From NCBI RefSeq assembly GCF_003334335.1, contig NZ_QOWQ01000039.1: DNA of 39,846 nucleotides; one strand, 5' to 3'. Each line of letters starts with the position of its first letter. The stretch's first letter is position 1. A program made the translations under genes and the position numbers. The notes beneath the pieces were generated by a model that saw only the letters and a program-made list of their open reading frames with translations, searched no databases and was not told where the DNA came from. The stretch is from Escherichia coli. GTDB lineage: Bacteria > Pseudomonadota > Gammaproteobacteria > Enterobacterales > Enterobacteriaceae. Below are positions 1-1,822 of this stretch, one piece after another.

Positions 1-77
1 AGTTATCGTGAGAGTAATTCATCGGCACGTTAAATCATATCAGGCGTAATACCACAACCCTTAAGTTAGCGCTTATG
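1..77. mobile_element. IS186-like insertion sequence, terminal fragment (element continues beyond the window start); 23-bp terminal inverted repeat at 55-77
   Basis: Positions 55-77 (caacccttaagttagcgcttatg) are the exact reverse complement of 39771-39793 (cataagcgctaacttaagggttg). Sequence inward of the repeat differs between the two edges, as expected for the two different ends of one IS type. The 23-bp sequence matches my recollection of the IS186 terminal repeat. Confidence 0.75.
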
Positions 78-98
78 GGATTACTCCCCGCACAACGG

Positions 99-251
99 CT
101 ACTTCTTCGGTTCGTAAGCGAGAACAGCCTTAAACTCAATATTACGTTCCTTCACCGTAAACTCACACAGCGAGTCTCCGACCAGAAGCGTAAATCCCAG
201 CACCGTTAAACACAGCACTATGACTGCCGCAAGGGCATATTTCGTCAGCAT
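99..251 (-). CDS. hokE: Hok-family small membrane toxin HokE (50 aa), type I toxin-antitoxin
   Basis: The last 50 codons of the 99..350 ORF translate to [50 protein letters not shown], which has the Hok family hydrophobic N-terminus and conserved Cys/Glu pattern. ATG at 249-251, TAG stop at 99-101, GGAGG Shine-Dalgarno just upstream. Confidence 0.85.
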
Positions 252-480
252 GTTTATATTGCCTCCATGCGAAGAAGGGACTACCATCCAAATTGTTCGG
301 GTTTGGAGTGGCAGCCCCAGGGTTGATAGAAATATCTCCTGGGGCTTCATCTTTCCAGACCTCAGAGTAAACCTGAAACCGGAAAGCTTCAGGCACCCGC
401 CGTTATCTTACCCTTCCTCAACAAAATAGCTGTTTATTTATACAGTGAGTCCTGTTTCGGACTTCTCACTCCTCATTTAA
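252..480 (-). promoter_or_regulatory. hokE mRNA leader region, expected to hold the overlapping mok-like frame and the antisense sokE RNA; exact boundaries not determined
   Basis: By analogy with hok/sok loci. A GTG-initiated 77-aa frame (163..396, minus) overlaps hokE out of frame like mok in plasmid R1, and an in-frame upstream ATG (350) also exists. Promoters and antisense RNA ends cannot be fixed by eye. Confidence 0.35.
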
Positions 481-694
481 TCAACTGAAGCTGAACCCGT
501 TTTTTTCTGCATGACTCAATCGTCAAAATTCTTCGCCACCAGTCAGCACTGCCATAACTTGTCACATTGCAAAAGTAGCCAAATTGCTTCAGGCACCATC
601 AGTTCACCATCACCAAAAAAAAGAAACATTCCAGAACTTCCGCATCTCGCCCAGCCGCTCCGACTTCTATACTGAATAGAAAACGCCAACATAA

Positions 695-1822
<1,128 letters not shown>

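Follow-up and report, generated by a model that had tools for sequence, protein, structure and literature searches.

Does a type I toxin gene whose promoter, leader, antisense RNA and reading frame are all complete still form a working killing module when an insertion element ends just behind its stop codon? The question was addressed for hokE in a window of 39,846 nucleotides of Escherichia coli DNA, i.e. the whole stretch that was analysed. Window positions 1–720 were 100% identical to K-12 strains, the same 720 nt being identical to DH5alpha, and a window position p corresponds to MG1655 coordinate 608087-p (NC_000913.3), with 1 mismatch in the first 2,787 nt. The region is very likely the hokE/sokE type I toxin-antitoxin locus of E. 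coli K-12 with its 3′ regulatory module severed by an IS186 insertion. The hokE promoter with its LexA box, the tac-containing leader, the antisense sokE gene and the toxin ORF are all intact in the K-12 locus. The IS186-split hokE is an already known case, described for K-12 in 1999 (Pedersen & Gerdes) and restated in current papers.

The compared loci were an IS-free strain (L001; 99.2% identical), an IS186-occupied site (L002), an R1-type IncFII hok/sok locus (L009), the cysH-cas3 region of strain E600003 (L008), K-12 hokC (L010) and MDR_56 (L011). The 5′ end of the hokE mRNA at position 398 and every RNA structure given below are predictions.

The toxin gene and its ribosome binding site were located as follows.

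99–251, minus strand: hokE coding sequence, 50 amino acids plus stop codon TAG (99–101), Hok/Gef membrane toxin (ORF list, Pfam, MG1655 annotation b4415)
262–266, minus strand: hokE Shine–Dalgarno sequence GGAGG, 10 nt upstream of the AUG

The initial annotation had described hokE as intact and well equipped with a Shine–Dalgarno sequence, and both points held. The 50-codon frame matched Pfam HOK_GEF (PF01848) across model positions 1–42 of 42 (E 9e-8); the NCBIfam Hok family models matched as well, but below their curated cut-offs. An identical protein (WP_000956455.1) is encoded by the window and by the IS-free strain, and HokE shares 44% identity with R1 Hok. GGAGG is present, though a spacing of 10 nt from the start codon is on the long side; R1, with 9 nt, resembles hokE in this respect. 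The overexpressed hokE coding sequence is toxic (bioRxiv 10.1101/2025.08.07.668861). hokE mRNA has been detected in K-12, with A-to-I editing of about 40% at Tyr46 (Y46C) (PMC12214031); the K-12 gene is therefore transcribed. The Tyr46 codon UAC was found at window positions 114–116 (minus strand) in a UACG context (GCUUACGAACC), which is the reported editing position.

Upstream of the toxin frame, the leader, the promoter and the mok-like frame were assigned.

243–398, minus strand: hokE mRNA 5′ leader, predicted 5′ end at 398 (GGGUGCCUGAAGC...) (Rfam RF01794)
391–398, minus strand: tac element GGGUGCCU at the mRNA 5′ end, pairs with fbi in intact alleles (folding)
341–346, minus strand: ucb-like partner AGCCCC, mRNA nt 53–58, predicted tac partner when fbi is absent (folding)
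405–410, minus strand: putative hokE −10 hexamer TAAGAT, 6 nt upstream of the predicted +1 (read from sequence)
428–447, minus strand: LexA box CACTGTATAAATAAACAGCT (CTG-N10-CAG), overlapping the −35 region of the hokE promoter (sequence)
163–396, minus strand: mok-like frame, 77 codons, GTG start (ORF list; frame real, start doubtful)

Rfam RF01794 matched window positions 398–243 (minus strand) over the full model with 84.4 bits (gathering score 59, E 5e-19). The family is named "sok antitoxin" and modelled on the hok mRNA sense strand, from the leader to the hok AUG, and the strand hit is the hok strand. RF01794 also matched the hok-sense strand of the R1-type plasmid locus (L009 182–353, plus strand), ending at the hok AUG, and the hit is therefore evidence for a hok leader. 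Its use as a map of the antisense gene was rejected, since it lies on the hok-sense strand.

The putative TAAGAT stands at the same distance from +1 as TATGAT in the R1-type locus; no convincing −35 hexamer for hokE was found on reading the sequence. A consensus scan of window positions 1–720 for promoters and terminators flagged nothing, the hokE and sokE hexamers falling below its threshold; both sets of hexamers are readings of the sequence by analogy with R1. The LexA box has a heterology index of 4.9 (PMC11228462).

As to mok, the initial annotation had pointed to an overlapping out-of-frame ORF starting with GTG at 396. The frame does exist, at 163–396, whereas its start is implausible: on the predicted mRNA this GTG falls at nt +3, and nine hokE alleles differ by 1-nt indels that shift the register and, upstream of about nt 62, interrupt the frame in other alleles. 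It was rejected as a mok start. The only canonical starts in the mok frame are the GUG at mRNA nt 3 and a UUG at nt 108, neither with a Shine–Dalgarno sequence. An AUG at nt 112 (window 287–285), in frame with hokE, is conserved in all nine alleles but sits in a conserved stem. A further AUG at mRNA nt 49 (window 350–348) is in mok register in the alleles L004, L006 and L007, which carry one extra C at nt 62; in K-12 and the IS-free strain L001 the same AUG is in frame with hokE and opens an 83-codon ORF (99–350, minus strand). No AUG is present at the site that corresponds to the start of mok in R1.

The antisense gene, which the initial annotation could not delimit, was placed by the MG1655 annotation of b4835 together with its fold.

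295–354, plus strand: sokE antisense RNA, 60 nt, complementary throughout to hokE mRNA nt 45–104 (MG1655 annotation b4835 mapped to the window)
259–287, plus strand: putative sokE promoter, −35 TTGCCT (259–264), 17-nt spacer, −10 TACCAT (282–287) (read from sequence)

In its predicted fold, SokE starts with 11 unpaired nt as a 5′ tail, continues in a long hairpin and finishes in a U-rich stretch (−24.6 kcal/mol, z −2.8). The promoter hexamers agree with the consensus at 8 of 12 positions and are laid out as in the R1 Sok promoter. On the same strand, antisense to the hokE leader, PGAP annotates a pseudogene ("hypothetical protein, frameshifted") at about window positions 220–488; in some strains this ORF is intact with 89 codons (e.g. 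WP_009008364.1 in L006). The annotated frame is probably spurious.

On the other side of the toxin frame, the junction with the insertion element was resolved into the following parts.

1–77, minus strand: end of IS186 (K-12 copy IS186B), co-directional with hokE (annotation, junction sequence)
55–77, no strand: 23-bp terminal inverted repeat of IS186, CAACCCTTAAGTTAGCGCTTATG (same repeat at the other IS end in L002)
78–87, no strand: 10-bp target-site duplication GGATTACTCC (empty L001 vs occupied L002; second copy beyond the IS, outside the window)
78–91, minus strand: remnant of the hokE 3′ stem-loop, with 5′ arm GCGGGGA (91–85), loop GUAA (84–81) and UCC of the 3′ arm (80–78) (comparison with intact alleles)

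The element is IS186 (IS4 family), with 23-bp inverted repeats flanking an InsL transposase gene over about 1.34 kb. The start codon of the transposase gene insL2 lies at window positions 22–20, and the gene runs past the window start. The IS terminus had been put at 77, some 21 bp past the hokE stop, which proved accurate: 21 nt (78–98) separate the end of the inverted repeat from the stop codon. In the empty site of L001, which reads GCGGGGATTGCTCCCCGC, the distance from the end of entD to the hokE stop is 121 bp; the occupied K-12 site reads GCGGGGATTACTCC / IS186 / GGATTACTCCCCGC. Comparison of the empty with the occupied site (L002) gave 1,339 bp of IS186 between inverted repeats plus a 10-bp duplication, the boundary being ambiguous by about 1 nt, as a flanking G/C can be assigned to the IS or to the duplication. 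The original target at hokE was GGGGATTACTCCCC, i.e. G4-N6-C4. In the MG1655 annotation, IS186B spans 608007–609351 (1,345 bp), which on the hokE side sets its edge at window position 80, 3 nt past the last base of the inverted repeat.

Of the 7 nt in the hairpin's 3′ arm, only 3 are left in the window, and the protective 3′ stem-loop is split by IS186. Sequence comparison shows that the element inserted inside a hairpin that begins 8 nt after the hokE stop, and not merely near the stop. In intact hokE alleles the 3′ UTR comprises, in this order, the stop, a 7-nt spacer, the hairpin (GCGGGGA-GYAA-UCCCCGC, mRNA nt 308–325), a spacer of about 27 nt, fbi and a long GC hairpin CGCCCG...CGGGCG (terminator). 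The fbi element AGGCACCU corresponds to mRNA nt 353–360, 53–60 nt after the stop. On sequence comparison, fbi and terminator of K-12 lie beyond IS186, displaced by 1,349 nt, past the transposase gene and outside the window.

The initial annotation had proposed that the insertion removes the fold-back-inhibition element. This is correct insofar as fbi is gone from the hokE transcription unit; it was, however, displaced by the element and not deleted. A deletion of fbi by the IS was rejected, as fbi is intact and co-linear on the entD side of IS186. In the suggested alignment with R1-type and IS-free hokE loci, the hairpin's 3′ arm, fbi and terminator, i.e. the 3′ regulatory module, were missing from the hokE unit. 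A complete hok 3′ region within the window would have spoken against this, and no fbi-like sequence was found there.

RNA folding gave a matching picture. As positive control, the known tac/fbi pairing was recovered in the R1-type mRNA (nt 1–7 with 385–391). In the full-length mRNAs of three IS-free alleles from three lineages, nt 1–8 were predicted to pair with nt 353–360 (p about 0.99, range 0.88–1.0). In three paralogs tac and fbi differ in sequence and yet remain complementary (GGGUGCCU/AGGCACCU in hokE, GGGUGC/GCACCC in hokC, GGCGCUU/AAGCGCC in R1), as expected of a genuine long-range helix. When the truncated K-12 transcript was folded, as the initial annotation had recommended, the fold-back was lost: whether ended at the junction or at window position 1, the RNA was predicted to pair its 5′ end locally with nt 53–58 and to expose a hairpin loop to which the 5′ tail of SokE is complementary. 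This open form equals the predicted fold of the 1–330 "processed" version of an intact allele.

What the loss entails was considered against the R1 system. There, the tac/fbi fold-back keeps the full-length hok mRNA stable while barring both its translation and the access of Sok; the active mRNA, which ends in a GC hairpin, arises by slow 3′ processing, and single substitutions that weaken the 3′ stem-loop (mutants G345A and C358A) eliminate the truncated mRNA and abolish toxicity (PMC9841398). At hokE, the hairpin 8 nt past the stop is made up of a G4-N6-C4 palindrome, which IS186 recognised; the element inserted within it and duplicated 10 bp, and sequence comparison shows that the hairpin expected to shield the end of the processed mRNA is split. 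On the R1 model and the folding, the K-12 transcript would be unable to form the closed tac/fbi fold-back (stable, untranslatable and Sok-blind); it would instead be born in the open tac/ucb form, bound by constitutive SokE and rapidly degraded. Since the hairpin is split, and fbi and terminator are separated from the gene, we infer that no latent pool of hokE mRNA would form: lacking a 3′ protective hairpin, the transcript should not accumulate as a reservoir of inert toxin mRNA, and the locus would be disabled as a delayed-killing module though its toxin ORF remains potent. The proposal of the initial annotation that hok loci of K-12 are inactivated by IS elements is supported by the missing 3′ module and by passages in PMC12214031 and PMC7232551, which, both citing Pedersen & Gerdes 1999, regard hokA, hokC and hokE of K-12 as inactivated by insertion elements.

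Several points weigh against this account. By analogy with R1, where loss of fbi gives the translatable form, inactivation is not self-evident and would hinge on an excess of SokE and on mRNA instability; moreover, the mRNA is detected and edited in K-12 (PMC12214031), i.e. the gene is transcribed. The equilibrium pairing of a read-through RNA with the displaced fbi and the lack of a strong terminator inside IS186, both described below, also count against it. A rival reading is that the locus is still a working SOS-inducible toxin gene, the mRNA without fbi being constitutively translatable, so that LexA cleavage together with any drop in SokE could release HokE from a locus rewired, not inactivated, by IS186. 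The intact promoter, LexA box, leader, sokE and ORF agree with it, as do the identity of the predicted K-12 fold with the processed active form, the presence and editing of the transcript (PMC12214031), the toxicity of the overexpressed coding sequence (bioRxiv 10.1101/2025.08.07.668861) and the listing of hokE among SOS-induced toxins in reviews. The expression data, however, do not: despite the good LexA box, AZT did not induce hokE in MG1655 RNA-seq (0.47-fold), nor was a lexA dependence seen (PMC11228462). In addition, a strain lacking hokE and five further SOS toxin genes showed no persistence phenotype (PMC8406316), and judging by the R1 mutants G345A and C358A, an mRNA with a split 3′ hairpin should be unstable. 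A working SOS-inducible hokE was considered unlikely.

Less probable still is an essentially preserved regulation, in which transcription reads through the whole of IS186 to the original terminator and the resulting 1.76-kb RNA still closes tac/fbi. In MFE and partition function calculations nt 1–8 of this 1,757-nt RNA did pair with nt 1702–1709 (p 0.88–0.99), hokE and insL2 are co-directional, and a scan of IS186 on the hok-sense strand gave no strong intrinsic terminator, the one weak terminator-like site there being within the number expected by chance. Yet the pairing is an equilibrium prediction only, while about 1.35 kb of extra transcription would leave the nascent leader free to refold, bind SokE and be translated. 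Furthermore, 3′ processing would need to remove about 1.4 kb, the read-through transcript is likely subject to Rho-dependent termination or degradation, and the passages in PMC12214031 and PMC7232551 treat the locus as inactivated. The preferred reading remains that of a hokE locus disabled by loss of its 3′ module.

The distribution of the insertion was determined in 5,426 complete E. coli genomes. A 90-nt junction probe was covered to at least 80% in 1,871 of them, about 150–310 of the matching records appearing to be of the hokX type (~90% identity), and an empty-site probe was covered in 3,641 genomes. Occupation of hokE itself was estimated at approximately 1,560–1,720 of the 5,426 genomes (~30%) from an evenly spaced sample of the matches. 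The insertion is present in many natural isolates and is not a laboratory artefact. The intact form of hokE is carried by about two thirds of E. coli genomes. Many E. coli, among them O157:H7 and other strains (L005, L006, L007) and MDR_56 (L011), have two tandem hokE/sokE copies between entD and ybdK.

The split allele accounts for the tolerance of an intact toxin gene by K-12, which in itself is of little importance beyond bookkeeping. Results on hokE in K-12, be it on SOS induction, persistence or RNA editing, stem from an allele without the 3′ control module.

IS186 was found at the same hairpin in further hok genes. In K-12 hokC (gef)/sokC, IS186A is inserted in the corresponding hairpin at the matching nucleotide (GCGGGGAGTGATCC/CATAAG junction) with a 10-bp duplication and a G4-N6-C4 target, and an fbi-like GCACCC and the terminator are displaced to the far side of IS186A, as at hokE. 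hokC differs from hokE in that the IS186 orientation is opposite, the transposase being convergent with hokC, and in that mokC is annotated as an in-frame upstream extension. At hokX of strain E600003 (cysH-cas3 region, L008 1801–2019) the junction geometry is the same (GCGGGGGTAAAACC/CATAAG) and the IS is oriented as at K-12 hokE, whereas hokX is another paralog at another chromosomal site that is absent from K-12; IS186 behind hokX has been reported for E. coli B. In MDR_56 each of the two tandem hokE copies has an IS186 at this hairpin position, oriented the other way round from the element at K-12 hokE.

The consensus target of IS186 has the form G4-N6/7-C4. A consensus target for this element was reportedly published by SaiSree et al. 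in 2001. The target was G4-N6-C4 at every compared site (hokE, hokC, hokX and the MDR_56 hokE copies), and the hok 3′ hairpin is therefore a recurrent IS186 hot spot. Repeated hits on the same hairpin of several hok paralogs, in either orientation, show that target-site preference shapes the decay of toxin-antitoxin loci. A more far-reaching reading takes the stem-loop with its G4-N6-C4 as a built-in landing pad through which hok paralogs are repeatedly knocked out, and adds that the terminator-less, LexA-controlled hokE promoter reads into insL2 and could couple transposase expression to SOS. The landing pad as such is supported by the hits on hokC, hokE and hokX, by the two orientations, by both MDR_56 copies and by the ~30% occupancy at hokE; as a whole, this reading was judged quite improbable. 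An SOS-controlled hokE promoter driving the co-directional IS186 transposase is its only part with some novelty, and it is not favoured by the available expression data.

Compared with hok/sok of plasmid R1 (parB; R1-type IncFII locus L009), hokE has the same type of Hok/Gef toxin, a leader that matches RF01794 and an antisense RNA whose promoter overlaps the hok Shine–Dalgarno sequence. IS-free hokE alleles also share the R1 order of 3′ elements, namely stop, 7-bp GC hairpin, about 27 nt, fbi and terminator, with tac/fbi pairing predicted in both. The hairpin starts 8 nt after the stop in hokE and 10 nt after it in R1 (GGCGGGC-GCAG-GCCCGCC), and fbi follows at 53–60 nt in hokE and at 55–64 nt in the R1-type locus (CUGAAGCGCC). 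R1 hok mRNAs are 398 and 361 nt long, and the end of the R1-type hairpin (L009) fits 361 nt. Unlike R1, hokE in the window has a split hairpin, with fbi and terminator absent from its transcription unit, no AUG-initiated mok at the site where mok of R1 would begin and a LexA box in its promoter. It is also chromosomal, unlike plasmid R1 hok/sok, and not known to mediate post-segregational killing; a statement in bioRxiv 10.1101/2025.08.07.668861, citing Pedersen & Gerdes 1999, holds that chromosomal hok loci do not do so. The closest known system is hokE/sokE with IS186B of K-12 MG1655 (b4415, b4835 and insL2 b0582), which is the same locus with the same genes, IS and junction, and identical over the finding. 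The sole difference, an IS edge that the MG1655 annotation draws 3 nt deeper in the flank than the inverted repeat does, is nothing of substance.
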